From Deltaproteobacteria bacterium (lineage in GTDB: Bacteria; Myxococcota_A; Polyangia; Polyangiales; Houyiibacteriaceae), in contig QMMB01000001.1 in the NCBI GenBank assembly GCA_003647035.1, positions 1 through 28,654 of the forward strand: DNA of 28,654 nucleotides, in the 5' to 3' direction. Position numbers and translations under genes: made by a program. A model generated the notes under the pieces. It saw only the letters and a program-made list of their open reading frames with translations, was not told the origin of the DNA and made no database searches. Below are positions 3-19,949 of this stretch, piece after piece (the first letter of the stretch is position 1; each line of letters opens with the position of its first letter).

Positions 3-884
3 GTGCTCGAATACACGTACACCCGAAGCACCGGTCCGGTGGTCGGACGCTTCTTGGAAAACCTTCGGTACGAAGTGCTCGAAGGCGTCAAGACGGTCGA
101 CGGTCGCGTGCTTTGCCCGCCTCTCGAATACGACGAGGAGGGTGAACCGACGACCGGTGAGTTCGTACCGCTGCGTCCGTCGGGCACGGTGAAATCTTGG
201 TCATGGGTGCAGGAGCCTCGCAAGGGGCATCCGTTCGATCGTCCATTCGCTTGGGCCCTCATTCAACTCGACGGCACCGACAACGCCATGGTGCATGCCG
301 TCGATGCGGGCAAAGCCAAGCGAATGAAGACGGGGATGCGTGTTCGTTTGCGTTGGGCCGACCAGAAAAACGGGACCATCCGTGACATCGCGTGCTTCGA
401 GCCGATCGCTCCTTACCTGCCTGGTCCGGTGCATCTCGAGTACAAGGTGAACCCCGGGAAGCACTACACCGCCTATCTGCGCGGGCTGCAGGAGGGGAAG
501 CTCATCGGGGGCAGGGACCCGGAGGCGGGCAAGGTGTATGTCCCGCCTCGAGGGGCCGACCCCACGACGGGCAACCCGACGAGCGAATACGTCGAAGTGG
601 CCGACATCGGTGTCCTCACGACGTTCGCGATCATTCGCATCCCCTTTAAAGGCCAGAAGCTCACGCCGCCGTATTGCTTCGGGGCGATCGTGCTCGATGG
701 CGCGGACAGTCCCATCTACCATCTGATCAGCGGTGTCCCGCACGACGAGATCCGCATGGGCATGCGGGTCAAGGCGAAGTGGAAGCCCCAGGACGAATGG
801 GAAACTTCGCTCGAGAACATCCTCTACTTCGAACCCACGGGCGATCCAGACGCCCCGTTCGATAGCTATAAGGAACATCTCTAG
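3..884 (+). CDS. Tandem DUF35 OB-fold protein (Rv3521-like accessory partner of Ltp aldolases); probably 5'-truncated by the window edge
   Basis: Two internally repeated OB-fold units (GxVxSW/TTF...ALIQLDG/AIVLDG...GMRV). The C-terminus FDSYKEHL resembles Rv3521 (YDTYKHHL, from memory). The frame is open at the left edge and the stop overlaps the ltp4 start. Confidence 0.85.
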   Translation: MLEYTYTRSTGPVVGRFLENLRYEVLEGVKTVDGRVLCPPLEYDEEGEPTTGEFVPLRPSGTVKSWSWVQEPRKGHPFDRPFAWALIQLDGTDNAMVHAVDAGKAKRMKTGMRVRLRWADQKNGTIRDIACFEPIAPYLPGPVHLEYKVNPGKHYTAYLRGLQEGKLIGGRDPEAGKVYVPPRGADPTTGNPTSEYVEVADIGVLTTFAIIRIPFKGQKLTPPYCFGAIVLDGADSPIYHLISGVPHDEIRMGMRVKAKWKPQDEWETSLENILYFEPTGDPDAPFDSYKEHL

Positions 885-1939
885 TGCGTGACGTCGCCAT
901 TGTTTCCTTCTCGCAGCTCCCGTCGGTCAAGGCGATCGAGGCGGCCGATGAGCCCGAGCTCGTCCAGCCCGTCACCTCGGACGCGATGAAGCAGGTCGGT
1001 CTGACGCAAGATGACATCGGCTTCACGTGTTCCGGCAGCACCGACTACTTGCCGGGCCGTGCGTTCTCTTTCGTTGCAGCGGTCGACGGTCTCAAGGCGT
1101 GGCCTCCGATTCGCGAGTCACACGTCGAGATGGACGGCGCCTTTGCGCTCTACGAAGCTTGGGTGCGGCTGATGCAGGGGGATATCGACACCGCGTTGGT
1201 GTTTTCGTTTGGCAAGAGTTCGCTCGCGGCCGTTCCAGACGTCCTGAACCTGCAGAATGACCCCTACTACGTCCAGCCGCTCGGGCTCGACTCGATCAGC
1301 GCCGCGGCGCTTCAGGCGCAGGCCTTGATCGACAGCGGCAAGGCGACAGAGCGTGACTTCGCCGAAGTGGTTGCCCGCAATCGCAAGAACGCGATCGACA
1401 ACCCGAACGCGCACATCAAGGGCGATTTCAGCGTCGATGCAATGCTCGAAGAGCCCTATATCAGCTCCCCATTGCGCAAGAGCTTCTGCCCGCCGTTGTC
1501 CGACTCGGCTGCCGCGATCGTGCTCGCGGTCGGCGATACGGCGAAGAAGCTGGCGAAGCGGCCCGCTTGGATTCGCGGGTTCGACCATCGGACTGAACCA
1601 CATGCACTGGGTCAGCGCGACCTCACGACCTCGCCGTCTTCCAAACTGGCCGCCGAAAAAGCCGGCCTCGGCAAAGGCGAGGTGGACGTCGCGGAGCTTC
1701 ACGCGCCGTTTGCGCACCAGGAGATCATCTTGCGAGAGGCGATGGGCCTTGGTGATCGCGTCAGGGTCAATCCGTCCGGCGGGGCACTGGCGGCGAACTC
1801 GCTGATGACCGCGGGGTTGATTCGCTTCGGGGAAGCGGCGAACCGAGTGCTTTGCAGGGACGCGGATCGCGCACTCGCACACACGACAAACGGCGTCTGC
1901 CTTCAACACAACCTCGTTGCTATCTTGGAGGGCGAGTAA
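884..1939 (+). CDS. ltp4: Thiolase-superfamily lipid-transfer protein, Ltp4-like (putative steroid side-chain aldolase subunit)
   Basis: CSGSTDYLPGRAFSF, ESHVEMDGAFALYEAW, FSFGKSS, VNPSGGALAAN and ALAHTTNGVCLQHNLV closely follow M. tuberculosis Rv3522/Ltp4 as I recall it. No canonical thiolase CxSG cysteine. Syntenic with Rv3521-like and ltp3. Confidence 0.85.
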   Translation: MRDVAIVSFSQLPSVKAIEAADEPELVQPVTSDAMKQVGLTQDDIGFTCSGSTDYLPGRAFSFVAAVDGLKAWPPIRESHVEMDGAFALYEAWVRLMQGDIDTALVFSFGKSSLAAVPDVLNLQNDPYYVQPLGLDSISAAALQAQALIDSGKATERDFAEVVARNRKNAIDNPNAHIKGDFSVDAMLEEPYISSPLRKSFCPPLSDSAAAIVLAVGDTAKKLAKRPAWIRGFDHRTEPHALGQRDLTTSPSSKLAAEKAGLGKGEVDVAELHAPFAHQEIILREAMGLGDRVRVNPSGGALAANSLMTAGLIRFGEAANRVLCRDADRALAHTTNGVCLQHNLVAILEGE

Positions 1940-3087
1940 TGGCTGAGCAGTGTGCAGTCATCGGGATCGGTCAGACCAAGCATCGAGAGAGCCGGCGCGA
2001 TCTGTCGATTCCCGGCTTGGTCCGAGACGCCGCCATTCGCGCTCTACGAGACGCCGACATGACGTGGAAGGACATCGACTCCATCGTCATCGGCACTGCG
2101 CCCGACATGTTCGAGGGCGTCATGATGCCCGAACTGTGGTTGTCGGATGCTCTCGGTGCAGCTGGCAAGCCAATCTTCAGGGTCCACACCGCGGGCTCTG
2201 TCGGAGGCTCGACCGCGGTCGTTGCGTCTCACCTAATTCAAGGTGGCGTGCACGAGAAAGTGCTCACACTTGCGTTCGAGAAGCAGAGCGAGGCCAACGC
2301 GATGTGGGCGTTATCGCCCGTGGTCCCCTTTCAGCCGCAACTCGTAGCGGGTGCTGGCGGTTACTTCGCGCCTCTCATCCGGTCGTACATTCGCCGAGCC
2401 GACGCGCATCCCGACACCGGCTGCATGGTTGCCGTCAAGGACCGTCAGCACGGTTTGCTCAATCCGAATGCGCACCTTCATCTTGATCAAACCCTCGAGC
2501 AAGTGAAGGCCTCGCCGATGCTGTGGGACCCGATTCGATTCTCGGAGACCTGTCCCTCGTCCGACGGCGCGGTGGCGATGGTGCTCGTTAGCGAGAATCA
2601 CGCTGACCGCGTGAAGAACCCGGCATGGGTCAAGGGCACCTCGGTGCGAACCGAGCGCACGTTCTTCGCGGGGCGCGATCAGGTGAGTCCGGCCGCCGGG
2701 AAGCTGTGCGCGAAGGACGTGTACGACGAGGCCGGTATCACCAATCCTCTCAAAGAGATCGACTGCGCCGAGGTGTATGTGCCGTTCTCGTGGTTCGAGC
2801 CGATGTGGCTCGAGAACCTGGGTTTTGCCGAAGAGGGCGCAGGCTGGAGGATGACCATGGACGGCAAGACCAAGATTGGCGGCGCGATGCCGTTCAACAT
2901 GTCCGGTGGCGTCATGTGCACCAATCCGATTGGCGCCAGTGGTATGCTTCGATTTGCGGAAGCCGCGCGTCAGGTGCGCGGGACCGCTGAACAACACCAG
3001 GTTGACGGTGCAAAGGTGGCCCTTGGTCACGCGTACGGCGGTGGCTCGCAGTTCTTCGCGATGTGGATCGTGAGCTCGGAACGCTGA
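1939..3087 (+). CDS. ltp3: Thiolase-superfamily lipid-transfer protein, Ltp3-like
   Basis: APDMFEGVMMPEL, RVHTAGSVGGST, EKQSEANAMWAL, ETCPSSDG, EVYVPFSWFEPMWLENLGF and GHAYGGGSQFF match Rv3523/Ltp3. Start moved to the ATG at 1939, which overlaps the ltp4 stop (TAATG). Confidence 0.9.
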   Translation: MAEQCAVIGIGQTKHRESRRDLSIPGLVRDAAIRALRDADMTWKDIDSIVIGTAPDMFEGVMMPELWLSDALGAAGKPIFRVHTAGSVGGSTAVVASHLIQGGVHEKVLTLAFEKQSEANAMWALSPVVPFQPQLVAGAGGYFAPLIRSYIRRADAHPDTGCMVAVKDRQHGLLNPNAHLHLDQTLEQVKASPMLWDPIRFSETCPSSDGAVAMVLVSENHADRVKNPAWVKGTSVRTERTFFAGRDQVSPAAGKLCAKDVYDEAGITNPLKEIDCAEVYVPFSWFEPMWLENLGFAEEGAGWRMTMDGKTKIGGAMPFNMSGGVMCTNPIGASGMLRFAEAARQVRGTAEQHQVDGAKVALGHAYGGGSQFFAMWIVSSER

Positions 3088-3100
3088 GCCCGGAGAAACG

Positions 3101-4705
3101 ATGGAATACAATCTTGCAGATCTTTACGAGGCCATCGCGGATGCAACTCCCGACAATATGGCTTTGGCTTCAGGTGACGTGCACCACACGTATGCAGAGC
3201 TGGACAAGCGAGCGAACCGGCTCGGGCACTACCTGCAATCGCGGGGCATTGGAGCGGGCGACCACATAGGCCTTCATCTGTTCAACGGCCACGAGTTCGT
3301 GGAAGCGATTTTGGCGCTCTTCAAGATCCGCGCCGTCGGGATCAACATCAACTACCGCTTCGTGGGCCCCGAAGTGCGCTACATGATCGACGACGCGGAC
3401 CTCAAGGGCATCGTGACACAGCGACGGTTCGTTCCCGTGATCAACGAGGCCACGCAAGGTCTCGAGCCACTTCAGGCGCTCATCGTGATTGAGGACGGCG
3501 TGGACGCCATCGCCGATCAGGAGTCGATCGAGTACGAGACCGCGCTCGGGCAGGGCTCCGAGGAGCGGGATTTCGGGCCTAGGTCTGGCGATGACTTGTA
3601 CATCATCTACACCGGCGGCACGACCGGGATGCCCAAGGGCGTCATGTGGCGCCACGAGGACCTTTTCTTCTCGGGGCTCCAGGGCGGATCGCCCGGCGGC
3701 GAACCGGTCGAGTCCCCCGAGCAGCTCGTCGAGCAAGCCAAGGACGGATGGTACACGGTGACCATGCTTCCGTGCGCTCCGTTCATACACGGCGCAGCGC
3801 AGTTCACGCAGTGGATCTGTCACCTGACCGGCGGAAAGCTCGTGTTGCAACACGGGCCGAGCTTCGACGCGGGTCGCATTCTCTCCTTGGTCGCCGAGGA
3901 AGATGCTTCAACCTTATCGCTCGTGGGGGATGCCATGGCGATCCCTCTAATCGACGAGCTCAAGGCCGGCGACTACGACATGTCGAACCTCACGGTGATT
4001 GCGTCGGCCGGCGCCATCCTCTCGCCAAGCGTCCAAGCCGAGATCGAAGAGCTTCTCCCCGACGTAATGATCATCAACAGCTTCGGGACCAGCGAGTCGG
4101 GCGACCTCGGCCGCGCTGCCCGCGATGAGGACAGCCACGAGGGCCGCCCTTCCTTCTACATGGGGGAGGACGTCACCGTCTTGGACGAAGAGGGTAAACA
4201 GATCGAGCCGGGCTCCGGCGAGATCGGCATGGTTGCTCGCTCGGGCCGCTTGTCCCTCGGCTACTCCGCGGCCACCGAGAAGACCGCCGAGCGCTTCAGG
4301 GAGTTCAACGGCAAGCGCTGGGTCGTGCCCGGCGACTTCGCTACCGTCGAAGAGGATGGGCGCATCACATTCCTGGGCCGTGGTAGCAAGTGCATCAACA
4401 CCGGCGGCGAGAAGGTCTTCCCCGAAGAGGTGGAAGAAGCGCTCAAGGCGCACCCGGACATTATCGACGCGCTCGTTGTCGCTGTTCCGGACCCCCGCTT
4501 CGGCTCGAAGGTTGCGGCCGTGTTCAACACGCGTGACAACAAGCACCTTTCGCTCGACGAAGTGAAGGAACACTGTCGAAAGCATGTCGCGAGGTACAAG
4601 CTTCCGCGACAGATCACCATCACCGAGACGGTCTCCCGCATGCCGAGCGGAAAGCCGGATTACCCCTGGGCGGAGAAAATCGCCCGCGACCAGGCGAGCG
4701 CGTAG
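3101..4705 (+). CDS. fadD19: Acyl-CoA synthetase, FadD19-like steroid-CoA ligase
   Basis: AMP-binding YTGGTTGMPKGVMWRHED, GDAMAIPL, FGTSESG, INTGGEKVFPEEVE and GKPDYPWA match the FadD19 subfamily. RBS-like GGAGA upstream of the ATG. Confidence 0.8.
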   Translation: MEYNLADLYEAIADATPDNMALASGDVHHTYAELDKRANRLGHYLQSRGIGAGDHIGLHLFNGHEFVEAILALFKIRAVGININYRFVGPEVRYMIDDADLKGIVTQRRFVPVINEATQGLEPLQALIVIEDGVDAIADQESIEYETALGQGSEERDFGPRSGDDLYIIYTGGTTGMPKGVMWRHEDLFFSGLQGGSPGGEPVESPEQLVEQAKDGWYTVTMLPCAPFIHGAAQFTQWICHLTGGKLVLQHGPSFDAGRILSLVAEEDASTLSLVGDAMAIPLIDELKAGDYDMSNLTVIASAGAILSPSVQAEIEELLPDVMIINSFGTSESGDLGRAARDEDSHEGRPSFYMGEDVTVLDEEGKQIEPGSGEIGMVARSGRLSLGYSAATEKTAERFREFNGKRWVVPGDFATVEEDGRITFLGRGSKCINTGGEKVFPEEVEEALKAHPDIIDALVVAVPDPRFGSKVAAVFNTRDNKHLSLDEVKEHCRKHVARYKLPRQITITETVSRMPSGKPDYPWAEKIARDQASA

Positions 4706-4741
4706 CGCATGCCGACAAGTACCCAAGCCCAAGAGGAACCC

Positions 4742-5716: not shown

Positions 5717-5718
5717 AA

Positions 5719-6297
5719 ATGGATGACCGAGCCAAGCGCATCGTTGAAACGGCCGTCGCACTCGCGGAGCGCGACGGATACCAGGCGGTACGGCTGCGGG
5801 ACGTTGCAGCCAGTGCACAGGTAGCGCTCGGCACGGTCTACAAGCGTTTCGCCAGCAAAGAGGAGATCCTCATCGCGGCGTTGGAGCAAGAGAGCGAGAG
5901 GCTCGTCGCTAAGATCGGCAAGAAGTCGGTTCCGGGCGACGGCCCACAGGAGCGGGTGCGCTTTGTTTTTACCGCGCTGACGAAGGGGCTTCTTCGGCGG
6001 CCGAATCTTGCCAAGGCCTTGGTCCGGTCGTTGGCGTCTGGGGACCCGAACATCACCGAGCGCGTGGCGAGCTTCCACGCCCTCATCACGGCACTGGTCA
6101 TGGCGGCGATTCGCGGCGAAGCGGCCGCCGACGAGAGTGAGTGGGGGGGCGACGTCGACGAGCGCGAGCGCACCATCTCCTCGATCCTGCAGAACGTGTG
6201 GTTCGCGTCGTTCGTCGGATGGGCCGGCGGCCTCCACGACGGGCCCCAAGTCCTCGAAGACGTCGACAAAACGGCGAAGCTTCTGCTAGCGGCGTAG
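5719..6297 (+). CDS. kstR: TetR-family repressor, KstR-like
   Basis: HTH GYQAVRLRDVAASAQVALGTVYKRFASK resembles KstR (GYEAVQMRAVADRADVAVGTLYRYFPSK). C-domain ISSILQNVWFASFVGW resembles KstR IARVISDVWLSNLLAW. It sits in a steroid operon with a KstR box nearby. Confidence 0.7.
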   Translation: MDDRAKRIVETAVALAERDGYQAVRLRDVAASAQVALGTVYKRFASKEEILIAALEQESERLVAKIGKKSVPGDGPQERVRFVFTALTKGLLRRPNLAKALVRSLASGDPNITERVASFHALITALVMAAIRGEAAADESEWGGDVDERERTISSILQNVWFASFVGWAGGLHDGPQVLEDVDKTAKLLLAA

Positions 6298-6334
6298 GCG
6301 AGGGCCCATTACTTCCACGCAGCGATTTCGATGG

Positions 6335-8446
6335 GTGCTTCCTTGCCCCAAGGGGTGCGAGGACACGCTTGCAGAAGAGGTGCGAAACCTCGACGTGGAA
6401 GTCACCGCTGTGCGGCCAACCGCCGTGCATGCGCGCGGCACGTTGCAAGAGGGATATCGGTTGTGCCTGTGGTCTCGCGTCGCATCCCGGGTCTTGCTTC
6501 CGCTCGTCGAGCTCGATGCCGAAGACGACACCGCTCTCTATGATGCGCTCCGCGGGGTCGCTTGGTGGGAACATTTCGACGCCAATCAGACGTTCGCGAT
6601 TGGCAGCTCTCAGGCTCCGAAGAGCCCTTTCCCTTCGCACTACTGGGTGCAGCGAGCGAAGGATGCGATCGTCGATAGCTTTCGGGATCACTCCGGTACG
6701 CGCCCGAGCATCGACAAGAAGGACCCGGCGATACGGTTTCACCTGCACATCGGCGAGTCGCATCACGAGCTCGCCCTCGATTTCTCGGGGGAGGGCTTGC
6801 ACCGGCGGGGCTACCGGCAGGCGGGCGGCAAGGCTCCGCTCAAGGAGAATCTAGCCGCGGCCATTCTATATCTCGCCGGCTGGCCGCAAGCGGCGCGCAA
6901 GGGCCTGACGCTGATGGATCCGACCTGCGGCTCGGGCACGTTCTTGATCGAAGCAGCCTTGATGGCGACGAACTGTGCGCCCGGGCTCTTGCGAGCGCGC
7001 TTTGGGTTCGAGGATTGGCTGCGGCACGACGATGCGGCGTTCGCCACCGAGCGAGATGCCGCACTGACCGCGCGCCAGGCCGAGTGTCCGGCGAGGATCT
7101 TTGGCTGCGACGCATCGGAGAAGGCATTGTCGTACGTTCGGGACAACCTCGCGGCGGCAGGGGTCGAGCAGCACGTGTCGCTGGCCGTGAAGGAACTGTC
7201 TGCCGTCGAGAAGCCCGCTGAGGGTGGCATCCTCGTGTGCAATCCCCCATACGGTCATCGGCTAGGTGACGAGGGCACGCTGTTCCTGTTCTATCAGGCG
7301 CTCGGCGATACGTTGAAGCGCGTCTTTGACGGATGGACCGCCTACGTGTTTGCGGCGCACGGCGGCAACCTCAAGCACCTCGGACTTCGACCGACGCGCC
7401 GCCACGTTCTGTACAACGGTTCGATCGAGTGCCGTCTGGTAGAGATCCCCATACGCGGTGTGGTCGGGGGAGAATCGGCCAGGCCGCCGGGTTGGCGAAA
7501 GCCCAGCGAGAAGGCCCAGATGTTCGCCAACCGCATCAAGAAGAACAAGAAAAAGTGGGGGAGATGGGCGAAGCGCAGCGGCATCGAATGCTACCGGATC
7601 TACGACGCGGACATTCCGGAGTACAACGTCGCCGTTGATCGCTATCAGACCAAAGCGGTGGTTCACATCTTCCAGAAGGAGCGAGACGCCAACGACGACG
7701 GCGCGAAGCAGCGAGTTCAAGACGTGTTGATGACGCTTCCCGATGCGCTGGGCATCGACCCTGACGACCTCATCGTGAAAGTCAGACGCAAACACGACGA
7801 GGGTGACCAGTACGCCCGCATCTCGCAGCAAGAAGCTGAGATGATTGTCGGTGAGGGTGACCTTCGCTTCGTGGTGAACCTGGAAGACCGGATCGACACG
7901 GGCCTCTTCTTGGACCACCGCGCAGTGCGCGCGTACGCAGCGGAGCAATGCAAAGGGAAGCGCATGCTGAATCTGTTTTCGTACACCTGCTCGGTGAGCG
8001 TCGCGGCGGCGGTCGGCGGCGCCAAGCAGACCACGAGCGTCGACCTCTCGAACACCTACCTCGACTGGGGCAAGAAGAACTTCAAGGCCAACGATCTCGA
8101 CGTCGCAAGACACCGCTTCATCCGCGACGACGCCACCCGCTGGATGGCCAGAGACCGCAACAGCTACGACTGGATCTTCATCAACCCGCCCACCTTCTCG
8201 CGCTCTAAGATGAGCAAGGGCGACTTCAACATCCACAAGGACCACAAGGCGCTGATCGAAAGCGCCATGAGCTCCCTAGACAAAAAGGGCGAGCTCCTCT
8301 TCACCACCCACGCCCGGGCCTTCGAGTTGGACGAGGTAATCACAAGCCGCTTCCACGTCGAAAACGTGACGAAGCAGTTCGTCCCCCCCGACTTCGTCCG
8401 ATACCCCTTCCAAGCCTTTCGCCTGAGGACACACTCCACCCGCTGA
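6335..8446 (+). CDS. rlmKL: Bifunctional 23S rRNA methyltransferase RlmL-RlmK (m2G2445 / m7G2069)
   Basis: YRLCLWSRVASRVLL, GLHRRGYR, APLKENLAAA, DPTCGSGTFLIEAA, NPPYG, CYRIYDADIPEY, DTGLFLDHR, LNLFSYT and INPPTFS. The start is uncertain (GTG 6335 versus a non-canonical ACG at 6317). Confidence 0.95.
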   Translation: MLPCPKGCEDTLAEEVRNLDVEVTAVRPTAVHARGTLQEGYRLCLWSRVASRVLLPLVELDAEDDTALYDALRGVAWWEHFDANQTFAIGSSQAPKSPFPSHYWVQRAKDAIVDSFRDHSGTRPSIDKKDPAIRFHLHIGESHHELALDFSGEGLHRRGYRQAGGKAPLKENLAAAILYLAGWPQAARKGLTLMDPTCGSGTFLIEAALMATNCAPGLLRARFGFEDWLRHDDAAFATERDAALTARQAECPARIFGCDASEKALSYVRDNLAAAGVEQHVSLAVKELSAVEKPAEGGILVCNPPYGHRLGDEGTLFLFYQALGDTLKRVFDGWTAYVFAAHGGNLKHLGLRPTRRHVLYNGSIECRLVEIPIRGVVGGESARPPGWRKPSEKAQMFANRIKKNKKKWGRWAKRSGIECYRIYDADIPEYNVAVDRYQTKAVVHIFQKERDANDDGAKQRVQDVLMTLPDALGIDPDDLIVKVRRKHDEGDQYARISQQEAEMIVGEGDLRFVVNLEDRIDTGLFLDHRAVRAYAAEQCKGKRMLNLFSYTCSVSVAAAVGGAKQTTSVDLSNTYLDWGKKNFKANDLDVARHRFIRDDATRWMARDRNSYDWIFINPPTFSRSKMSKGDFNIHKDHKALIESAMSSLDKKGELLFTTHARAFELDEVITSRFHVENVTKQFVPPDFVRYPFQAFRLRTHSTR
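7985..8428 (+). repeat. Direct repeat copy 1 (3' 148 codons of rlmKL)
   Basis: Manual codon alignment with 11338-11781 gives 444 bp, 35 substitutions and 2 single-base indels (~92% identity). Confidence 0.95.
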
Positions 8447-8551
8447 GAAGCAGCGTGGTATCGTGCACTTTGGGGAGCAGAAGAGTGATCCCTGGGGACG
8501 GGAGCGTGGCCTTTTCTTTCGCAAGGGAGGTCTACGGGTCATAACGCGGGG

Positions 8552-9580
8552 ATGAGCGAGCCGTCGAGTGCCGGCCCACCGGGGCGAGATGCAGCTGCTC
8601 GGGTCGGCGCCCGCGTCGCGGCCCTACGTGAACTCGGCGAGCATATCGCCGAACGCGTGCCCTCGCGGTTGCGCAAGGGCCTGCGTCGGGCGCTCTCGGT
8701 CGGATTCTTCGTCGTGATCGCGCTGGTGCTTTACCGACAACTCTCCGGCACCGATTGGTCCGAGGTACTGCGTTCGGTCCCGCGATCGCCCTGGTTCTAC
8801 GTCATCTTCCTTGTGCGATATCTCAACGTTCCGATCACAGACGCGCTCTCCTACTCGGCCGTTTGGGCGACGAATCTCTTCCGTCACTTCGGCGTCTTCC
8901 TCATGAAGCGCGTGATCAATAGCTCGTTCTCCGGGGGTTCGGGCGACGTCTACTTCCTGCTGTGGACAGTCAGAACGCTCCGCGTGACCTATTGGCAGGC
9001 CTTCTCCGCAGGGAAGGATGTGACCTTACTTTCCGCAGCAGCTGCCAACGCGGTTGCCGTCGTGGTGTTAGGGGCTTACTTGGCCTTTGGCGATCTGTCC
9101 CTCGTACAGGCCGTGAGCCCGGCGGTGCTGGGTCTCGTCATCGGAGTCACCCTTGCGACCGCCGTATTGAGCCTATTCGTCGTTCGTTTTCGGGGTAAGG
9201 TCCTGGGGATCGGCACCGACGTCATGTGGCGCATCCTCGGGTACCACGGTGCACGAAGCATTGCCAAGATCCTCTTGCTGGGGCTGCAGTGGACCGTCGG
9301 CCTGCCCGGGTCGAGGTTCTCGGACTGGATTGGCTTGCTCGTCGTGGACATGCTGGTTGCTCGCACACCGTTGGTGCCGGCGCGAGAGTTCCTGTTTCTC
9401 TCGCTGGCCTTGAGTCTGGCGGGCACGATCGACGCCCCCGAAGTGCAGGTGACCGCGATGTTCCTGACAGATACCGCCCTGATGCAACTCGGTTCCGTGG
9501 CCTCACTGATTGCCGGGATCGTGTGGAAGTCCAAGCCCGACCCGCTCCCAAGGGCGCCTGAGAACGGAGGACCGAAGTAG
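8552..9580 (+). CDS. Multi-pass membrane protein, resembling lysylphosphatidylglycerol-synthase TM / flippase-like domain proteins
   Basis: Several hydrophobic stretches (GFFVVIALVLY, WFYVIFLV, AVAVVVLGAYLAFG, VLGLVIGVTLATAVLSLFVV, FLFLSLALSLAG). No catalytic motif recognised. Adjacent to a glycosyltransferase. Confidence 0.55.
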   Translation: MSEPSSAGPPGRDAAARVGARVAALRELGEHIAERVPSRLRKGLRRALSVGFFVVIALVLYRQLSGTDWSEVLRSVPRSPWFYVIFLVRYLNVPITDALSYSAVWATNLFRHFGVFLMKRVINSSFSGGSGDVYFLLWTVRTLRVTYWQAFSAGKDVTLLSAAAANAVAVVVLGAYLAFGDLSLVQAVSPAVLGLVIGVTLATAVLSLFVVRFRGKVLGIGTDVMWRILGYHGARSIAKILLLGLQWTVGLPGSRFSDWIGLLVVDMLVARTPLVPAREFLFLSLALSLAGTIDAPEVQVTAMFLTDTALMQLGSVASLIAGIVWKSKPDPLPRAPENGGPK

Positions 9581-9627
9581 CAGACGTCCGACTGGACCGA
9601 GCCTCCGTGCGCGGGTAGACCGGCCTA

Positions 9628-10614: not shown

Positions 10615-10645
10615 CGGTTCGCGGCCTGTGCGCCATGCCCCGCAT

Positions 10646-11311: not shown

Positions 11312-11337
11312 CGGACAAGCACACCCACGAGTAGCCC

Positions 11338-12756: not shown

Positions 12757-12785
12757 TGGACATGTCACAACCCGTGGGCTAGAAC
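12757..12785 (+). promoter_or_regulatory. Possible sigma70-type promoter for the hsaA operon (TGGACA-17 nt-TAGAAC)
   Basis: The -35 matches TTGACA at 5/6, the spacer is 17 nt, and the -10 matches TATAAT at 4/6 and overlaps the KstR box. Inferred from pattern only. Confidence 0.3.
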
Positions 12786-12793
12786 ACGTTCTA
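12780..12793. promoter_or_regulatory. KstR operator TAGAACACGTTCTA
   Basis: Exact match to the established KstR consensus TnnAACnnGTTnnA, with perfect 6-bp arms (TAGAAC/GTTCTA). It lies in the divergent intergenic region, 77 nt from the amidohydrolase start and 95 nt from the hsaA start. Confidence 0.8.
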
Positions 12794-12888
12794 CTTTATG
12801 GCCCGAGGCGGCCCTTCTGTAAAGCCGGGACCACACGACTCATCGAATGCCATCGGCCCCCAGCCCGTGGCGCTTGGAGACACGAGCA

Positions 12889-14079
12889 ATGCACGGAGAT
12901 CAGAGCCCCATCCCGACACGCGAAGAACTGATTGAGAGCGCCCGCGAACTGGCGCCGACGCTGCAGGAACGATCCAAGAAGGCCGCCGAGCTGCGGAGGA
13001 TTCCCGACGAGACCATCGAGGATTTCCATCGGCTCGGCTTCTTCAAGGTCGTTCAGCCCAAACGATTTGGCGGCTACGAGATGGACCCGTCCATCATTTT
13101 CGACCTGCAGCTTGAGCTCGGCCGTGGGTGCGCGTCGAGTGCCTGGGTCTACGGCGTGCTGAACGTGCACTCCTGGCAGCTCGCGCTCTTCGCGCCCGAG
13201 GCGCAGGACGAGGTGTGGGGCGAAGATCCCAAGACGCTGATTTCCTCGTCGTACATGCCCGTCGCGAAAACCGAGTGGGTCGATGGTGGCGTGAAGCTCA
13301 GCGGGCGTTGGTCGTTTTCGAGCGGGTGCGACGCCTGCCAGTGGGGATTCCTCGGTGGCTTCGTACCGAACGAAGAGGGCAAGCCACCGGACATGCGCAC
13401 ATTCCTGGTGCCGCGCGCCGACTACGAGATCATCGACAACTGGTATGTGTCGGGGCTCCGGGGCTCGGGCAGTAAGGATGTCGTCGTCGACGGTGCGTTC
13501 GTTCCGGACCACCGCATGCACAAGTTCTCGGATGGTTTCAGGCAGCAGAGCCCGGGCAACGAGATCAATCCATCGCCCGTGTACAAGTACCCGTTCGGCC
13601 AGATTCACGTTCGCTCCGTTTCCACGCCGGCGGTTGGCGCTGCCTTCGGGGCGCTCGACTCCTACGTCGACTTCATGAAGAACAAGGTGTCCCAGGCGAC
13701 GGGCGGCAAGGCCAAGGAGTCATTCACCAACAGCATGGTGGCTGCCGAAGCCACGGCTGTGCTCGACCGCGAGGTCTTGACGCTACGGCGCAACTTCGAA
13801 GAGATGGCCGGCTATCTACAGAGGGGCGAGAAGATCCCGCTCGACCGACGGGTCCACTTCCGCAACGACTCGGCGCGGGCCGTTCGCGTATCGACGGAGG
13901 TCGTCCAGCAGCTGTTCATCGCGTGCGGCGCTCGCGCGGCTTTCGAGGACCACCCTATCAACCGCCATTTTCAAGATATTCACACGATTCGACTTCACCA
14001 CGCGAACAGTCCTGACACGCCCGGCTCCAACATGGGGGGCGTGCTGTTCGGCCAAAAGAGCACGGACTTCTTCATCTGA
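12889..14079 (+). CDS. hsaA: Flavin-dependent monooxygenase oxygenase subunit, HsaA/TesA1-like (3-HSA 4-hydroxylase)
   Basis: LRRIPDET, QPKRFGG, VHSWQLALFAPEAQDEVWGEDP, ISSSY, WSFSSGCD, WYVSGLRGSGS and RLHHAN match HsaA. Start moved to ATG 12889 (GGAGA RBS). Confidence 0.85.
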   Translation: MHGDQSPIPTREELIESARELAPTLQERSKKAAELRRIPDETIEDFHRLGFFKVVQPKRFGGYEMDPSIIFDLQLELGRGCASSAWVYGVLNVHSWQLALFAPEAQDEVWGEDPKTLISSSYMPVAKTEWVDGGVKLSGRWSFSSGCDACQWGFLGGFVPNEEGKPPDMRTFLVPRADYEIIDNWYVSGLRGSGSKDVVVDGAFVPDHRMHKFSDGFRQQSPGNEINPSPVYKYPFGQIHVRSVSTPAVGAAFGALDSYVDFMKNKVSQATGGKAKESFTNSMVAAEATAVLDREVLTLRRNFEEMAGYLQRGEKIPLDRRVHFRNDSARAVRVSTEVVQQLFIACGARAAFEDHPINRHFQDIHTIRLHHANSPDTPGSNMGGVLFGQKSTDFFI

Positions 14080-14081
14080 AC

Positions 14082-14882
14082 ATGGATGCCACGGCGCGAA
14101 AGCAGAGGATCGAGGAGCTTGGAGACGAGCTGTACGAGGCCATGCGTGCGCGCCGGACGCTGAGTCCCCTCACGGAACGCTGGCCAGAGATCACAATTGA
14201 AGATGCGTATCACGTGTCGCTGAGAATGGTGGACCGGCGTGTGCAAGGCGACGGTGAGAAGATCATCGGCAAGAAGATCGGTGTAACCAGTCTTGCGGTG
14301 CAAGAGATGCTGGGTGTCTTTCGGCCGGACTTCGGGTATCTCACGGACAAAATGCACTACCCGAACGGCGGTCCGATGCCGATCAGCGAGCAGTTGATTC
14401 AGCCACGCGCCGAAGGCGAGATCGCGTTCAAGTTGAAGAAAGACTTGAAGGGTCCGGGCGTCACAAACGAGGACGTCTTGGAAGCGACGGAGTACGTGAT
14501 GGCCTGCTTCGAGGTTGTGGACAGCCGGATTCACGACTGGAAGGTCAAGATCCAAGACACCGTCGCAGACAACGCGAGCTGCGGATTGTTCGTCCTCGGT
14601 GACGAACATGCCGACCCCAAGGTGCTCGATTTCCCGAACCTGAAAATGCGCGTCTACAAGAACGGCGAGCCTCTCAGCGAGGGACTGGGCTCAGCGGCCC
14701 TCGACTCACCACTCAACTGTGTCAGCTGGCTGGCGAACACTCTGTCGGAGTTTGGGATTGGCTTGAACGCGGGTGACGTCGTGCTTTCCGGTTCGTTGGT
14801 GCCCCTCGAGCCGGTCGTGGCGGGCGACGAGATGCGCCTCGAAGTCGAAGGGATCGGAACCGCGTCCGTGCGGTTCACATAG
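14082..14882 (+). CDS. hsaE: 2-hydroxypenta/hexa-2,4-dienoate hydratase (HsaE/TesE/XylJ/MhpD family)
   Basis: DAYHVSL, GKKIGVTS, PDFGYLTD, QPRAEGEIAF, FEVVDSRI, DTVADNAS, WLANTL and VLSGSLVP. Confidence 0.9.
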   Translation: MDATARKQRIEELGDELYEAMRARRTLSPLTERWPEITIEDAYHVSLRMVDRRVQGDGEKIIGKKIGVTSLAVQEMLGVFRPDFGYLTDKMHYPNGGPMPISEQLIQPRAEGEIAFKLKKDLKGPGVTNEDVLEATEYVMACFEVVDSRIHDWKVKIQDTVADNASCGLFVLGDEHADPKVLDFPNLKMRVYKNGEPLSEGLGSAALDSPLNCVSWLANTLSEFGIGLNAGDVVLSGSLVPLEPVVAGDEMRLEVEGIGTASVRFT

Positions 14883-14894
14883 GAGTAGCGAGAG

Positions 14895-15791
14895 ATGACG
14901 ACGAAAGTGAAGGCAGCGATCATCGGGTCCGGGAACATCGGCACCGATCTGCTCTACAAGGCCCTTCGAAGCGAGATCATCGAGCCGGTATGGATGGTCG
15001 GCATCGATCCGGAGTCCGAAGGCCTCAAGCGAGCGAAGGAGCTTGGCCTCAAGACGACGGCCGACGGTGTCAAGGGCATGGAGCCGCACATCGCCGACGA
15101 CAAAGTCCAAATCGCCTGGGACGCGACCAGCGCGTACGTGCACGAGTCGAACAACGAGATCGTCAAAAAGCACGGCGTCAGGATGGTCGACCTCACCCCG
15201 GCCGCCATCGGGCCCTTCTGTGTGCCCCCCGTCAATCTGCAAGACATGGTTGGGCGTGACGAACAGAATGTGAACATGGTGACCTGCGGTGGTCAGGCGA
15301 CAATTCCCATGGTTGCCGCGGTGAGTCGCGTGCAGGCTGTCGAGTACGGCGAGATCATCGCGACGGTATCTTCGAAGTCGGCAGGGCCGGGAACCCGGAA
15401 GAACATCGACGAGTTCACCCGCACCACGGCCAGGGGCGTCGAGGTCGTCGGCGGTGCGGAGCGCGGCAAGGCCATCATCATCATCAATCCCGCGGAGCCA
15501 CCACTCATGATGCGTGACACGATTCACTGTCTGACCAAGGATGCTCCAAAGCAAGAAGAGATCATCGAATCAGCTCAGCAGATGATAGCCGAGGTCCAGA
15601 AATACGTGCCCGGATACACACTCAAGAACGGGCCGGTGTTCGATGGCAATCGCGTGTCGTTCTACATGGTCGTCGAGGGGCTTGGCGACTTCCTCCCGAA
15701 GTACGCGGGCAATCTCGACATCATGACGGCAGCTGGCCTACGGACGGCCGAGCTCATCGCTGAGGAAATCCAGCGCGCGGAGGCAGCATGA
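14895..15791 (+). CDS. hsaG: Acylating acetaldehyde/propionaldehyde dehydrogenase (HsaG/TesF/XylQ/MhpF family)
   Basis: [46 protein letters not shown] and [11 protein letters not shown]. Confidence 0.93.
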
Positions 15792-16816
15792 ATCTCGAAG
15801 GTAAGAAGGTTACGCTCCACGACATGAGCCTGCGTGATGGGATGCATCCCCAGCGCCACCAGCTCACGACCGAGCAAATGATTCAGGTGGCGACCGCGCT
15901 CGATGCCGCCGGTGTGCCGCTCATCGAGGTGACGCACGGCGACGGCCTCGGCGGCGCATCGGTGAACTACGGTTTTCCGGCCGCAAGCGATGAGGACTAC
16001 CTGAGGGCCGTCGTGCCGAAGATGAACAATGCGAAGGTCTCCGCGTTGCTGATTCCGGGGATCGGCACGGTGGACCACCTGCGGATGGCGCACGATTGCG
16101 GTGTGCACACGATTCGTGTGGCCACGCATTGCACGGAGGCGGATGTTTCGGAGCAGCACATCGCCCTCGGCGCGAAAATGGAAATGGACACGGTGGGCTT
16201 CCTGATGATGGCCCACATGATTCCCCCCGAGCAGCTTCTCGAGCAGGCTAAGCTCATGCAAGGTTACGGCGCGAACTGCATCTACATCACCGATTCGGCT
16301 GGCTATATGTTGCCCGACCACGTCACCGCGCGCGTTGGACACCTGCGCGAAAACCTCAACGCGGATGTGGAGGTCGGTTTCCACGGGCACCACAACATGC
16401 ACCTGGGCATCGCGAATTCACTCGCAGCACTCGAAGCGGGCGCGGGGCGCGTTGATGGCTCCGTGGCGGGCATGGGAGCCGGCGCAGGCAATACGCCACT
16501 CGAGGTGTTCGTCGCCGTGCTCCATCGCATGGGCGTCGAAACCGGCATCGACATGTGGAGGCTCATGGATGTCGCTGAGGACATCGTCTACCCGCTCATG
16601 ACCCACAAAGTTCGCGCAGATCGCGACTCCCTGACACTTGGGTATGCGGGCGTGTACTCGTCCTTCCTGCTTCATGCGCAGCGGGCAGCCAAAAAGTACG
16701 GCCTCAAGTCGACTGACATCCTCCTCGAGCTTGGACGAATGAAGACCGTCGGTGGGCAGGAAGACATGATCGAGGACGTCGCACTCGACATGAAGAAGGC
16801 CGGAGCCGCGGAGTGA
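15788..16816 (+). CDS. hsaF: 4-hydroxy-2-oxovalerate/hexanoate aldolase (HsaF/TesG/XylK/MhpE family)
   Basis: [53 protein letters not shown] and GGQEDMI. ATGA overlap with the dehydrogenase. Confidence 0.93.
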
Positions 16817-16820
16817 CCGC

Positions 16821-18026
16821 GTGAGCGACCTAGAGGAATTTCGTGAGGATGCGCGGGCGTGGGTTCGCGAGAACGCGCCCGACTCGCTCCGGGGGACGAG
16901 TGGCAGCGGCCCGTTCGAAGGCTACTGGGGCGGCTCGAAGTGCGAGGAAACCGACCCGGACCTGTTGAGGTGGCGCGACCTCGGCATCGAGAAGGGGTGG
17001 ACAGCTCCAAGTTGGCCGAAAGAATACGGCGGTGGGGGGCTCAGCCACGAGCACGAAGAGATCATCCACGCGGAGATGAAGGCGATTGGCGTGCCACGGC
17101 CGGTCGCAGGGCAGGGCCTCGCGATGTTTGGGCCTGTGCTGCTCGAGTACGGCAATGACGCACAGAGGGCGGCACACCTGCCTGCGATTGCTCGCGGTGA
17201 GATGCGTTGGTGTCAGGGGTATTCGGAGCCCAATGCGGGGTCCGATCTCGCGAGCCTCCAGTTGAAGGCAGAGCGGGACCGTGATGAATTCGTGTTGAAC
17301 GGCCAGAAGGTTTGGACCTCGCACGCCAATCTGAGCGACTGGATCTGCTGCCTGGCCCGGACGGATCCGAACGCGCCCAAGAAACAGATGGGCATTTCGG
17401 TGATCCTCGCCGACCTCAATACGCCCGGGATCACGGTGAAGCGAATCGATCTGATCAGCGGGTACTCGCCTTTCTGCGAAACCTTTTTCGACGACGTCCG
17501 CGTGCCCGTCGGCAATCTCGTGGGCAAGGAGAACGAAGGGTGGACGATCGCCAAGGCGATCCTCGACCACGAGCGCTCATCGATCGGTCGCTCGATCGCC
17601 CGGCAGCCGGGGTCGGCGCAGCGCGAGGTCGTCGGCCGGACGCGCAAGCATCTCGGCGTGGCCGAGGGCGTCATCCCCGACCCGTTGCTTCGTGATGAGA
17701 TCGCTGCGCTTGGCATGCTCGAAGAGGCGTTTCACCTCACGCTTGCTCGCATTCAGCAAAGCGCCGCAAGCGGTACGCCAGGGCCCGAAGGCTCCATCAC
17801 CAAGATCGTGGGCACCGACCTCAAGCAGATGCGTTTCGAGCTCGGGATGAAAGTCGCTGGCGTCGACGGATTGGGGTGGGAAGGGCCGGGCTTCGACGAG
17901 GACGACCTTCAGTACACCCGGGATTGGCTGCGGTCGCGCGCAAGCACCATCGAGGGAGGCTCGTCCGAGATCCAAAAGAACATCGTCTCCAAACGTGTGC
18001 TCGGCTTGCCGGAGGGGAAGAAATGA
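16821..18026 (+). CDS. Acyl-CoA dehydrogenase, catalytic subunit of a probable alpha2beta2 pair
   Basis: WCQGYSEPNAGSDLASL, NGQKVWTS, FCETFFDDVRVP, LDHER (candidate catalytic Glu) and TIEGGSSEIQKNIV. Confidence 0.88.
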   Translation: MSDLEEFREDARAWVRENAPDSLRGTSGSGPFEGYWGGSKCEETDPDLLRWRDLGIEKGWTAPSWPKEYGGGGLSHEHEEIIHAEMKAIGVPRPVAGQGLAMFGPVLLEYGNDAQRAAHLPAIARGEMRWCQGYSEPNAGSDLASLQLKAERDRDEFVLNGQKVWTSHANLSDWICCLARTDPNAPKKQMGISVILADLNTPGITVKRIDLISGYSPFCETFFDDVRVPVGNLVGKENEGWTIAKAILDHERSSIGRSIARQPGSAQREVVGRTRKHLGVAEGVIPDPLLRDEIAALGMLEEAFHLTLARIQQSAASGTPGPEGSITKIVGTDLKQMRFELGMKVAGVDGLGWEGPGFDEDDLQYTRDWLRSRASTIEGGSSEIQKNIVSKRVLGLPEGKK

Positions 18027-19168
18027 GCGGGCATACGGCGCCGTCCCTTCTTCTGAACGACGAGCAACAGATGCTCTCGAAGACGGCGCACCAATTCATC
18101 CACGACCGCGCGCCGGTCGCTCGCCTTCGGACCCTCCGTGACTCGAAAGACGAGACTGGGTTCTCTCGCGAGCTTTGGAACGAGATGGCGGAGCTCGGTT
18201 GGCTCGGTCTCCAAATACCGGAGCAGTACGATGGTATGGGCCTCGGCTTTTTCGATCTCTGTGTCGTCCTCGAGCAGAGCGGCCGCGAGTTGATGCCGGA
18301 GCCATTCGTGTCGACCCTTTTGCTCGGCACGCAAACGCTTCTGCTCGGCGGAACCGATGCGCAGAAGAAGGCTCTGCTCCCTGGCATCGCGTCTGGTGAA
18401 ACGATAGTGACCCTGGGCTACGAAGAGGCCGGGTCGCATGGAGATGCCTCGATGGTCGCGACGACGGCTCGCAAATCGACGGCCGGCTTCGAGCTCAGCG
18501 GGGCGAAGCTTCAGGTCCTCGACGGCCACCTTGCCGAGCGGATCATCGTATCTGCCACCACTTCGGATTCGGGTTACACGCTCTTCCTAATCGACCCGGC
18601 CCGTTCGGGTGTCACGATCACGCGCCAGTTCCGAATCGACGGACTGAACGCAGCCATCGTTCAGCTCGACGCAGTGCCGGTGGAGCGTGACGACGTCATC
18701 GGCGAGATCGGTGGCGGAGCGGTCCTCCTCGAGGCGGTGTTCGACCGTGCCGGGGTGGGTTTGTCGGCGCAGATGCTGGGCGCCTCGGAGCAAGCCTTTG
18801 CCGACACGATCGAATACCTCAAGGAACGCGAGCAGTTCGGCGTGCCCATTGGGTCATTCCAGGCGCTTCAGCACCGTGCCGTATCAGTGTACACGGAGTT
18901 GGCGCTAACCCGCTCGGCGGTCCTTGCCGCCGCCCGCGCAATCGACGACGCGCCAGATGATGTCCCGCGACTAGCGTCGCTCGCCAAGGCCATCGCCTCG
19001 GAGACGTTCATGCACGCCGCCAAGGAAGCCATCCAAATGCATGGCGGCATTGGCGTGACCGATGAGCACGACATCGGCTTCTACATCAAGCGTGCACAAG
19101 CGACCTACATGACTTTCGGAAAGCCTTCGCAACACCGGCAACGCTGGGCGGAGCTCCACGGTTACTAG
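18023..19168 (+). CDS. Acyl-CoA dehydrogenase, partner subunit of a probable alpha2beta2 pair
   Basis: REQFGVPIGSFQALQHR and AIQMHGGIGVTDEHD are present, but the SEPxxGSD and IxGG motifs are absent. Start moved to ATG 18023 (ATGA overlap with the upstream ACAD). Confidence 0.88.
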   Translation: MSGHTAPSLLLNDEQQMLSKTAHQFIHDRAPVARLRTLRDSKDETGFSRELWNEMAELGWLGLQIPEQYDGMGLGFFDLCVVLEQSGRELMPEPFVSTLLLGTQTLLLGGTDAQKKALLPGIASGETIVTLGYEEAGSHGDASMVATTARKSTAGFELSGAKLQVLDGHLAERIIVSATTSDSGYTLFLIDPARSGVTITRQFRIDGLNAAIVQLDAVPVERDDVIGEIGGGAVLLEAVFDRAGVGLSAQMLGASEQAFADTIEYLKEREQFGVPIGSFQALQHRAVSVYTELALTRSAVLAAARAIDDAPDDVPRLASLAKAIASETFMHAAKEAIQMHGGIGVTDEHDIGFYIKRAQATYMTFGKPSQHRQRWAELHGY

Positions 19169-19196
19169 CGACCCCTAAAGAAGAGCGAGAAGCACG

Positions 19197-19949
19197 ATGA
19201 AAAGGTTTGAAGGAAAGAACGTTGTAATCACCGGCGCAGCGGCGGGCATCGGCCAGGCCACGGCGAAGCGCATCGCCGAGGAGGGTGGCAACCTCGCTCT
19301 CATCGACATCAATGCCGAGGGACTGGCTGCCACGAAGAAGATAGCCGAAGACTTGGGCGTCAAGACGTGGGTCTACGAGTGCAACGTCACCGACGGTGCC
19401 CGTGTGAAAGAGGTGATCGACCAGGCCGCGAAAGACATGGGCGGCTTCGACACCCTGTGTCACTGCGCCGGAATTCTGCGCACCTACCACACGCACGAGA
19501 TGACCTTCGATCAATGGCACGAGATCATCGACATTAATCTCAATGGCACGTTCTACGTCAACCAGGCCGCACTCCCGCACCTGTTGAACAACCGCTTCAG
19601 CGCCCTGGTGAACTGTTCATCGACTTCCGCCCTCGGTAGCCATCCGTGGATGGCCGCCTACGCGGCCTCGAAGGGCGGCATCCTCTCGATGACCCGCGCG
19701 CTCTATCAGGAATACGTAAAGCAAGGTCTGCGCGCCAACTGTGTAATCCCCGGCGGAATCGCCACGGCGCTACACGGCGACTTCAAGGCCCCCGAAGGCG
19801 CCGACATGGAGCTCCTCAAAGGCGCGATGCCCTTCGTAGGCTTCGCCAAGCCCGCCCACGCAGCAAGCGTCATCGCCTTCCTAGCCTCCGACGACGCCCG
19901 CTACATCAACGGCACAGAAATCCGAGCCGACGGCGGCGCCCTCTCCTAG
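19197..19949 (+). CDS. Classical short-chain dehydrogenase/reductase (SDR)
   Basis: TGAAAGIG, HCAGI, INLNG, catalytic S...YAASK and YINGTEIRADGG. Confidence 0.9.
   Translation: MKRFEGKNVVITGAAAGIGQATAKRIAEEGGNLALIDINAEGLAATKKIAEDLGVKTWVYECNVTDGARVKEVIDQAAKDMGGFDTLCHCAGILRTYHTHEMTFDQWHEIIDINLNGTFYVNQAALPHLLNNRFSALVNCSSTSALGSHPWMAAYAASKGGILSMTRALYQEYVKQGLRANCVIPGGIATALHGDFKAPEGADMELLKGAMPFVGFAKPAHAASVIAFLASDDARYINGTEIRADGGALS

Follow-up and report, generated by a model that had tools for sequence, protein, structure and literature searches.

A KstR-type regulon for sterol catabolism predicted in an uncultured marine-sediment lineage of Myxococcota

The window analysed here is a stretch of 28,654 nucleotides that makes up an entire contig (QMMB01000001.1) of a metagenome-assembled genome (MAG; GCA_003647035.1) of 3.52 Mb in 570 contigs, with 63% GC, a completeness of 90.6% and a contamination of 2.9%. 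It carries two runs of genes of the types used in sterol breakdown, a gene for a TetR regulator that resembles KstR of Mycobacterium tuberculosis, and a palindrome of the KstR operator type. The initial annotation of this DNA had placed an Rv3521-ltp4-ltp3 arrangement, fadD19-, kshA-, kstR- and hsaA-like genes and one operator in a single locus, and each of these elements was found where it had been put. The gene products, the operator and the regulon to which they appear to belong are discussed below.

Proteins of the window were scanned with Pfam and NCBIfam, and their bit scores were compared with the curated cut-offs (Table 1). The first gene encodes the DUF35 partner of the Ltp thiolase-like aldolases, a protein 80-97% identical across about 40 related loci; ltp4 and ltp3 follow, the ATG of ltp3 at position 1939 overlapping the stop codon of ltp4. 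The KshA-type oxygenase finds its best PDB matches in KshA of Rhodococcus (4qdc, 201 bits) and of M. tuberculosis (181 bits), and the HsaA protein matches HsaA of RHA1 (310 bits) and of M. tuberculosis (302 bits). Judged from their sequences, the two acyl-CoA dehydrogenase (ACAD) genes encode a putative heteromeric pair of the FadE/ChsE/IpdE-like kind, the second gene probably starting near 18050. The short-chain dehydrogenase/reductase (SDR) that closes the hsaA operon is syntenic in relatives (84-97% identity), where the amidohydrolase gene is likewise kept beside the operator (83-93%).

Table 1. Features of the window, with coordinates, strand and family evidence.
Feature	Coordinates	Strand	Evidence
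DUF35/ChsH2-type OB-fold protein, Rv3521-like	3..884	+	Pfam OB_ChsH2_C, 83.9 bits, two stretches
Ltp4-type lipid-transfer/thiolase-like protein	884..1939	+	NF005924 (PRK07937), 487 bits, above cut-off 419
Ltp3-type thiolase-like protein	1939..3087	+	NF006180 (PRK08313), 629.5 bits, above cut-off 514
FadD19-type steroid/long-chain acyl-CoA synthetase	3101..4705	+	NF005863 (PRK07798), 674 bits, above cut-off 543
KshA-family Rieske oxygenase, 335 aa	4709..5716	+	Pfam Rieske and KshA_C, 178.8 bits
KstR-like TetR, 192 aa, final steroid gene of its operon	5719..6297	+	NF033703 best family
Fused RlmKL rRNA methyltransferase	6335..8446	+	Pfam RlmL_1st, THUMP, UPF0020, Methyltrans_SAM
Membrane protein, glycosyltransferase, methyltransferase block	8552..11311	+	
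Amidohydrolase_2 family gene, divergent from hsaA	11830..12702	-	Pfam PF04909, 93.5 bits
HsaA-type flavin-dependent 3-HSA hydroxylase, oxygenase subunit	12847..14079	+	NF045629, 406 bits, below cut-off 450
HsaE/HsaG/HsaF-type hydratase, acetaldehyde dehydrogenase, 4-hydroxy-2-oxovalerate aldolase	14082..16816	+	Pfam FAA_hydrolase; AcetDehyd-dimer; HMGL-like and DmpG_comm
Two acyl-CoA dehydrogenase genes	16821..19168	+	Pfam ACAD domains; pimC/pimD-like and IpdE2-like NCBIfam matches
SDR, final gene of hsaA operon	19197..19949	+	Pfam adh_short_C2, 192.9 bits
DJ-1, malic enzyme, LeuB, second LeuA/CimA-like, LeuD, LeuC, LeuA	3' of SDR	-	

The consensus TnnAACnnGTTnnA is matched once in the window, at 12780-12793, as the perfect 14-bp palindrome TAGAACACGTTCTA inside the 144-bp gap between hsaA and the divergent amidohydrolase gene. 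By experiment Kendall 2007 (PMC1995591) established this motif as that of KstR in M. tuberculosis and M. smegmatis, with the palindrome TAGAAC(N2)GTTCTA in the kstR promoter of M. tuberculosis and counts of 16 instances in that species and 31 in M. smegmatis; the site in the window is identical to that palindrome, so the exact KstR operator announced in the initial annotation is indeed there. Shuffled versions of the window contain 0.08 matches to TnnAACnnGTTnnA on average, and at least one match occurred in 7 of 100 shuffles; taken alone, the single match in the window is weak evidence. Its significance comes from the 17 refined sites found across the genome, where 0.79 are expected, and from the fact that 37 related genomes retain this site.

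With expected counts obtained analytically under a first-order Markov model, the loose consensus has 40 matches in the genome against about 15 expected, and the figure of 17 refers to the tighter form T[AG][AG]AACnnGTT[CT][CT]A (TRRAACNNGTTYYA). The 17 tight sites are distributed over 16 contigs and are nearly all intergenic or at the very start of an over-extended open reading frame; 20 of the 23 matches to the loose form only lie within genes. In an alignment of the intergenic region before hsaA from the 37 genomes, the half-sites TAGAAC and GTTCTA are at least 95% conserved and the central two nucleotides alone vary within the palindrome. The operator stands 17 bp 3' of a TGGACA that is also at least 95% conserved, TTTATGG and CTGTAAAGC downstream are largely conserved, and the flanks drift.

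One environmental metatranscriptome contig of 234 nt covers 12808-13041 with 8 mismatches, beginning 15 nt 3' of the operator and running into hsaA, and one metatranscriptome run contains 9% of the hsaA words. The contig was considered as a sign of expression or of a transcription start site and set aside as too weak, since its source may be a related strain or residual DNA in the library.

The best NCBIfam family of the TetR protein is KstR (NF033703, 123.4 bits), the next TetR model scoring 43 bits, and it is the sole strong KstR-like TetR of the genome (next TetR, 62 bits). Its best sequence match in the PDB is M. tuberculosis KstR (E 4e-22, residues 3-190), and its Pfam domains, TetR_N and TetR_C_20, are those of the KstR fold. 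An AlphaFold model was built from 57 diverse homologues with a mean predicted local distance difference test (pLDDT) value of 94.3. When this predicted structure was compared with the PDB by Foldseek, ranks 1-17 were all M. tuberculosis KstR chains, at template modelling (TM) scores of 0.78-0.91; the best fits were to the DNA-bound forms 5UA2 and 5FMP (TM 0.86-0.91, root-mean-square deviation 1.8 Å, 29% identity). After KstR came an uncharacterised Rhodococcus TetR, 3BJB (TM about 0.8), and then the acyl-CoA-binding FadR of Thermus (TM 0.66). The titles of PDB entries 5CW8, 5CXI and 5UA1/2 record operator binding as a dimer, and release by steroid-CoA, for M. tuberculosis KstR only.

At E ≤ 1e-30 an exhaustive search over 1.84 billion representative sequences returned 53 clusters of homologues, a number that rises to 408 when the threshold is relaxed to E ≤ 1e-10. 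The window protein and every Myxococcota locus belong to a clade of 106 rows (96 in the Shimodaira-Hasegawa-like approximate likelihood ratio test, SH-aLRT) in a tree built from 145 TetR sequences. The sister clade of 35 rows has the mycobacterial-type recognition helix (GTLYRYFPSKVHLL-type) and members named Marmoricola and Acidimicrobiales; it was recognised by these cluster names and the helix motif, the Rv3574 sequence being outside the tree, and the rooting, on long-branch paralogues, is weak. The protein is thus best described from its sequence as a KstR-like sister lineage, and not as an orthologue within the actinobacterial clade. Some closer homologues (62-66% identical) are called "cholesterol catabolism regulator" by JGI/IMG. 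The identification as KstR given in the initial annotation therefore stands in part: by family, PDB sequence and fold the nearest characterised relative is KstR, but the protein lies outside the actinobacterial KstR clade and below the equivalog cut-off.

Besides the operator in the window, the genome has 16 sites at 15 places, one of them a tandem pair, and nearly all adjoin steroid genes. These include genes for an Hsd4A-type SDR (PRK07791), cytochrome P450, ACAD, FadA5-like thiolase, aldehyde dehydrogenase, HsaC-like and HsaD-like proteins, as well as Ltp2 (697 bits, above its cut-off of 424). Three KstD-family flavoproteins are encoded beside operators. The genome encodes seven KshA_C Rieske proteins, two HsaA proteins (406 and 414 bits) and two HsaC-like proteins (209 and 206 bits, below the cut-off of 450); the KstD-like proteins score 570 and 463 bits and the HsaD-like protein 190 bits, and most scores for KstD, HsaA, HsaC, HsaD and the C/D-ring proteins fall below equivalog cut-offs, so that these are assignments at the family level. 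The tandem operators, TGAAACACGTTCTA at 521 and TGGAACACGTTCTA at 536 of one contig (C111:521-5151), are one base apart and precede a second ring-opening operon of kshA-like, hsaA (414 bits), hsaC-like and kshA-like genes. On another contig (C192:1578-3419) the operator TAGAACGCGTTCTA lies at 2431 between co-oriented hsaC-like and hsaD-like genes, internal to what appears to be a single operon; a gene for a solute-binding protein of the tripartite ATP-independent periplasmic (TRAP) type adjoins this pair.

The genes for the C/D rings appear to fall under the same box. In Mycobacterium the echA20-ipdAB-type block belongs to KstR2. Here a KstR-type box, TGAAACGCGTTTCA, precedes an enoyl-CoA hydratase gene (PRK07938) that is followed by a CoA-transferase gene at the end of its contig (C396:2313-3714), and a second contig (C228:1-5963) carries at its start a CoA-transferase pair, an NMO/IpdC-like gene, two ACAD genes, one of them IpdE2-like, and a thiolase gene (PRK07801). 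By gene order the two together look like the echA20-ipdAB-ipdC-ipdE-fadA6 C/D-ring block, and the second run may continue the first across an unassembled junction. A gene for a separate NMO/FabK-like (IpdC-like) protein stands beside a KstR-type box of its own. The KstR2-type motif AnCAAGnnCTTGnT has three matches in the genome, all within genes and none intergenic. The kstD, hsaCD and ipdAB genes that the initial annotation had proposed to look for are accordingly represented by KstD-like, HsaC/HsaD-like and IpdAB-like (CoA-transferase pair) genes.

Many of the operator-flanking genes belong to generic classes (ACADs, thiolases, hydratases, SDR, aldehyde dehydrogenase), and these could serve general fatty-acid or acyl-CoA beta-oxidation under a regulator of the FadR/PsrA type, the steroid names then reflecting paralogy. 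KstR itself was first cast as a regulator of lipid degradation (Kendall 2007, PMC1995591), and after KstR and 3BJB the nearest solved TetR structures are acyl-CoA-binding FadRs. We nevertheless regard a fatty-acid regulon as very unlikely, as the sites also flank genes specific for the steroid rings (KshA-type Rieske, HsaA at 406-414 bits, HsaC-like, HsaD-like, KstD-like) and the aldolase set for sterol side chains (Ltp2/Ltp3/Ltp4 with DUF35), and genomes throughout the phylum that have HsaC-like dioxygenases tend also to have the TetR, as detailed below.

The host genome shares one GTDB genus with MAGs titled Myxococcota, Polyangiales, Myxococcales and uncultured delta proteobacterium; five genomes grouped in its genus were recognised as these titled loci by their exactly matching coordinates. 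Kinship was judged throughout from the GTDB grouping (same genus or phylum) of the sampled genomes. A scan of species-representative genomes with the TetR alignment gave 97 genomes, and the best 80 of the 97 loci were examined; nearly all of these carry titles of Polyangiales, Myxococcales, Myxococcota, Deltaproteobacteria, Sandaracinaceae or Nannocystaceae MAGs, "Myxococcales bacterium SG8_38" among them. The host is a Myxococcota genus with genomes of about 3-5 Mb and no actinomycete, which bears out the earlier guess of Myxococcota/Polyangia. At least 15 metagenome studies of marine sediment and seawater contain DNA nearly identical to the window. The MAGs behind five loci (L073, L076, L081, L093 and L100) are titled "uncultured Rickettsiales bacterium" or "Proteobacteria bacterium"; the genomes of L073, L076 and L093 are in the same GTDB phylum as the host, so that NCBI titles mislead on taxonomy.

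Searching the best 80 of the 97 loci with the window proteins by tblastn, we found the order [operator]-(small gene)-DUF35-Ltp4-Ltp3-FadD19-KshA-TetR-RlmKL-amidohydrolase(-)-[operator]-HsaA-E-G-F-ACAD-ACAD-SDR in about 48 species genomes, at 66-97% amino-acid identity and each of the two operators keeps its position. In about 40 relatives the first of them, TAGAACAYGTTTCA, precedes the DUF35 gene by about 430 bp and heads the operon that ends in the TetR gene; this operator is absent from the window, together with the small gene, because the contig starts at DUF35. The small gene (L025:3840-4285 and about 40 other loci) has about 110 codons, and its product looks by eye like an SCP2 sterol-carrier domain. 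The housekeeping gene rlmKL is inside the cluster in all close relatives (66-96% identity). Distant relatives, with 54-55% TetR identity, keep LeuC-LeuD-LeuA2-LeuB-malic enzyme-KshA-TetR, which indicates that this neighbourhood is old in the lineage. The description of the system as a mosaic in the initial annotation is not upheld, since about 48 species share the gene order of the cluster, rlmKL included, and the leu-malic enzyme-TetR arrangement persists down to 54% TetR identity; from its gene order the cluster is most simply read as an old resident system.

That the contig is mis-binned actinobacterial DNA, or a very recent transfer from Actinomycetota with a KstR logic not native to its host, would agree with the identity of the operator to the mycobacterial one and with the passing scores of the side-chain genes on NCBIfam models, which we take to be built around actinobacterial (M. 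tuberculosis) proteins. The same cluster is nevertheless found on contigs of up to 2.1 Mb within the GTDB genus, rlmKL lies within it and leu genes adjoin it in an order that relatives share, and GC is uniform at about 62% over steroid and leu genes. The TetR homologues in the sampled families of the phylum, moreover, range in identity down to about 40% and form a clade apart from the actinobacterial proteins, and the 17 operators are dispersed over 16 contigs. Mis-binning or recent import is largely refuted by the synteny, the even GC, the separate TetR clade and the dispersed operators, and we find it scarcely credible.

The association of repressor, ring-cleavage genes and operators was then counted in 401 genomes of the host GTDB phylum, from 70 families, with thresholds of E ≤ 1e-30 for the TetR and E ≤ 1e-40 for HsaC-like proteins. 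A TetR homologue is present in 122 of the 401 genomes, including all 18 sampled members of the genus (76-94% identity), and HsaC-like genes are present in 65, with zero matches in 14 control genomes. The TetR occurs in 59 of the 65 HsaC-positive genomes and in 63 of the 336 HsaC-negative ones, counts that are descriptive, the related genomes being non-independent. Members of the genus have 14-21 TRRAACNNGTTYYA sites each, against 0-5 for a reversed control pattern. Many HsaC-positive genomes beyond the genus have 10-31 (median 8 for all HsaC-positive genomes outside it), and genomes without HsaC mostly have 0-3, as seen by inspection of the table with no computed median. Two HsaC-positive genomes (G038 and G066) have 27 and 21 operator-type sites and no TetR homologue at E ≤ 1e-30; either their repressor is more divergent or the TetR gene is unassembled.

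On this evidence we read the window as a part, comprising two transcription units, of a KstR-type regulon for sterol catabolism that extends over the genome of an uncultured marine-sediment Myxococcota from a lineage of the Polyangia type, a reading to which we assign a probability of about 0.85. Its workings we infer as follows. The KstR-like TetR would bind as a dimer to the 14-bp palindromes of the tight form, on or beside promoters, and so repress transcription. Release would most likely be brought about by a product of the FadD19-type ligase, a steroid acyl-CoA thioester comparable to 3-oxo-4-cholesten-26-oyl-CoA with M. tuberculosis KstR. The operator in the window would be common to the hsaA-hsaEGF-ACAD-ACAD-SDR operon and the divergent amidohydrolase gene, and the (SCP2)-DUF35-ltp4-ltp3-fadD19-kshA-tetR operon would be governed from the operator expected just past the 5' end of the contig, in which case the repressor would be autoregulated.

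The substrates would be sterols, probably C24-branched phytosterols or algal sterols. In actinobacteria Ltp3/Ltp4, DUF35 and FadD19-type ligases act on long C24-branched sterol side chains, and algal sterols are abundant in marine sediment. A real regulon might instead answer to polycyclic lipids of another kind, for example bile salts, steroid hormones or compounds derived from hopanoids or triterpenoids, the repressor being KstR-like in its DNA-binding half only. The ligand-binding domain is about 30% identical to that of M. tuberculosis KstR, and the multiplicity of genes (seven KshA, two HsaA, two HsaC, three KstD-like) suggests several substrates. No cholesterol oxidase, 3beta-HSD or Cyp125 orthologue turned up, though no search aimed at 3beta-HSD or cholesterol oxidase was made. 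Such substrates are unlikely in our view, for the side-chain set is of the type for C24-branched sterols, the operon of relatives starts with an SCP2-like gene, and the sediment habitat is rich in algal sterols. No member of the squalene/oxidosqualene cyclase family was found in the 90.6%-complete genome, so any sterols used would probably come from outside the cell. Some Myxococcota do synthesise sterols.

Several observations weigh against assigning the window to a KstR-type sterol regulon. The TetR reaches 123 bits (122.6 in the genome search) against the NCBIfam KstR equivalog cut-off of 280, and it belongs to a sister clade of the actinobacterial KstRs with about 29-33% identity to them; the position in a sister clade and the low score mean that an effector in common with KstR is not guaranteed. 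A few operators adjoin non-steroid genes (pdxJ, def, MauG-like). The list of regulon members comes from a simple gene caller based on GC3, applied to a fragmented genome. All relatives found are uncultured MAGs, and their shared descent tempers the co-occurrence counts. A strict scan for sigma-70 promoters and terminators around the operator found none, so that the overlap of operator and promoter is argued solely from the conserved blocks TGGACA-N17-TAGAAC.

Compared with the KstR system of Mycobacterium and Rhodococcus (Rv3574/MSMEG_6042; PDB 3MNL, 5CW8, 5UA1/2, 5FMP), the predicted TetR fold is alike and the 14-bp operator is the same. The regulons are similar in size (17 sites here, where M. 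tuberculosis has 16 and M. smegmatis 31) and in their target classes (ltp, fadD19, kshA, hsaA-G, kstD, fadA5 and hsd4A types). Double sites in tandem precede a kshA/hsaA unit here, as at Rv3570c/Rv3571, and autoregulation is likely. The systems differ in that the host here is a Gram-negative Myxococcota of marine sediment, the repressor is a distant relative below the equivalog cut-off, and its gene is the final steroid gene of the side-chain operon whereas in the KstR system it is a divergent single gene. A further difference is that the KstR-type box here precedes the echA20-ipdAB-like pair and another precedes the separate IpdC-like gene. The comparison with KstR2 (Rv3557c), which governs the C/D-ring HIP genes, rests on the echA20-ipdA-ipdB-ipdC-ipdE1/E2-fadA6-like block of the two contigs described above; it departs from KstR2 in the KstR-type box that precedes it, the KstR2-type matches all being intragenic.

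The 9,10-seco pathways of proteobacteria (tes/sca of Comamonas testosteroni, Pseudomonas, and those predicted for OM60/SAR86) resemble the system here in that a Gram-negative host has an aerobic ring-opening enzyme set, with a lower pathway of the TesEFG/HsaEFG type. Unlike in those bacteria, the side-chain genes here (Ltp2/3/4, DUF35, FadD19) belong to the type that actinobacteria use for sterols, the FadD19-type ligase scoring only 191 bits with the proteobacterial CasG model, and the regulator is KstR-like. Steroid regulators of Comamonas are of the LuxR or LysR type, for example TesR, TeiR and HsdR.

The housekeeping neighbours, which the initial annotation took to point away from actinomycetes, are present: fused RlmKL, malic enzyme, LeuB, a LeuA/CimA-like protein, LeuD, LeuC and LeuA. 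The leu cluster has two LeuA-family genes, one for a LeuA/CimA-like protein of 547 aa between leuB and leuD (23573-25216) and a truncated leuA at the contig end (27163-28653); the position of the former (LeuA2) is kept in distant Myxococcota relatives. About 3.3 kb of extra DNA at 8447-11777, with GC up to 68%, separates rlmKL from the amidohydrolase gene and ends with a 442-bp copy of the 3' end of rlmKL (7984-8424 against 11337-11777, 92% identical). The spacing of these two genes is 2-55 bp in most relatives and 0.6-2.9 kb at the same spot in some, which marks the junction as a recurrent insertion site.

Two wide surveys of bacteria that degrade steroids aerobically (Bergstrand 2016, PMC4810484; Holert 2018, PMC5790920) assigned them solely to Actinobacteria and alpha-, beta- and gammaproteobacteria, the former with marine OM60/SAR86 among its predicted degraders, and a comparative preprint of 2026 covers Proteobacteria and Actinomycetota only. 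We found no paper in the open-access literature that joins KstR or steroid degradation with Myxococcota, Polyangia or delta-proteobacteria, in keeping with the view of the initial annotation that the system is little described. A Myxococcota MAG with mycobacterial-type sterol genes, the same type of repressor and the exact switch suggests a third phylum that degrades sterols. The mechanism would be a familiar one in a new phylum, with a single KstR-type box that appears to cover the C/D-ring genes as well. More tentatively, and at slightly less than even odds as we see it, Myxococcota may constitute a third major phylum of aerobic sterol degraders, not reported until now and prominent in marine sediments, in which one KstR-type master repressor serves side-chain, A/B-ring and C/D-ring genes, predating or replacing the split into KstR and KstR2, and in which the system is old within the phylum and no recent import.

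A populous, uncultured genus of marine-sediment Myxococcota thus seems, from its gene content, to hold a 9,10-seco sterol pathway that is nearly complete and subject to KstR-type control, and an HsaC-like gene is present in roughly one in six of the sampled genomes of the phylum. If functional, these genes would add a widespread sediment group to the sinks for algal and plant sterols, with a bearing on carbon turnover and on the preservation of sterol biomarkers. The KstR repressor/operator pair would then be shared between phyla, the box could be used as a computational marker of steroid regulons in metagenomes, and the system would offer a natural comparison for the partition of the KstR and KstR2 regulons in M. 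tuberculosis.

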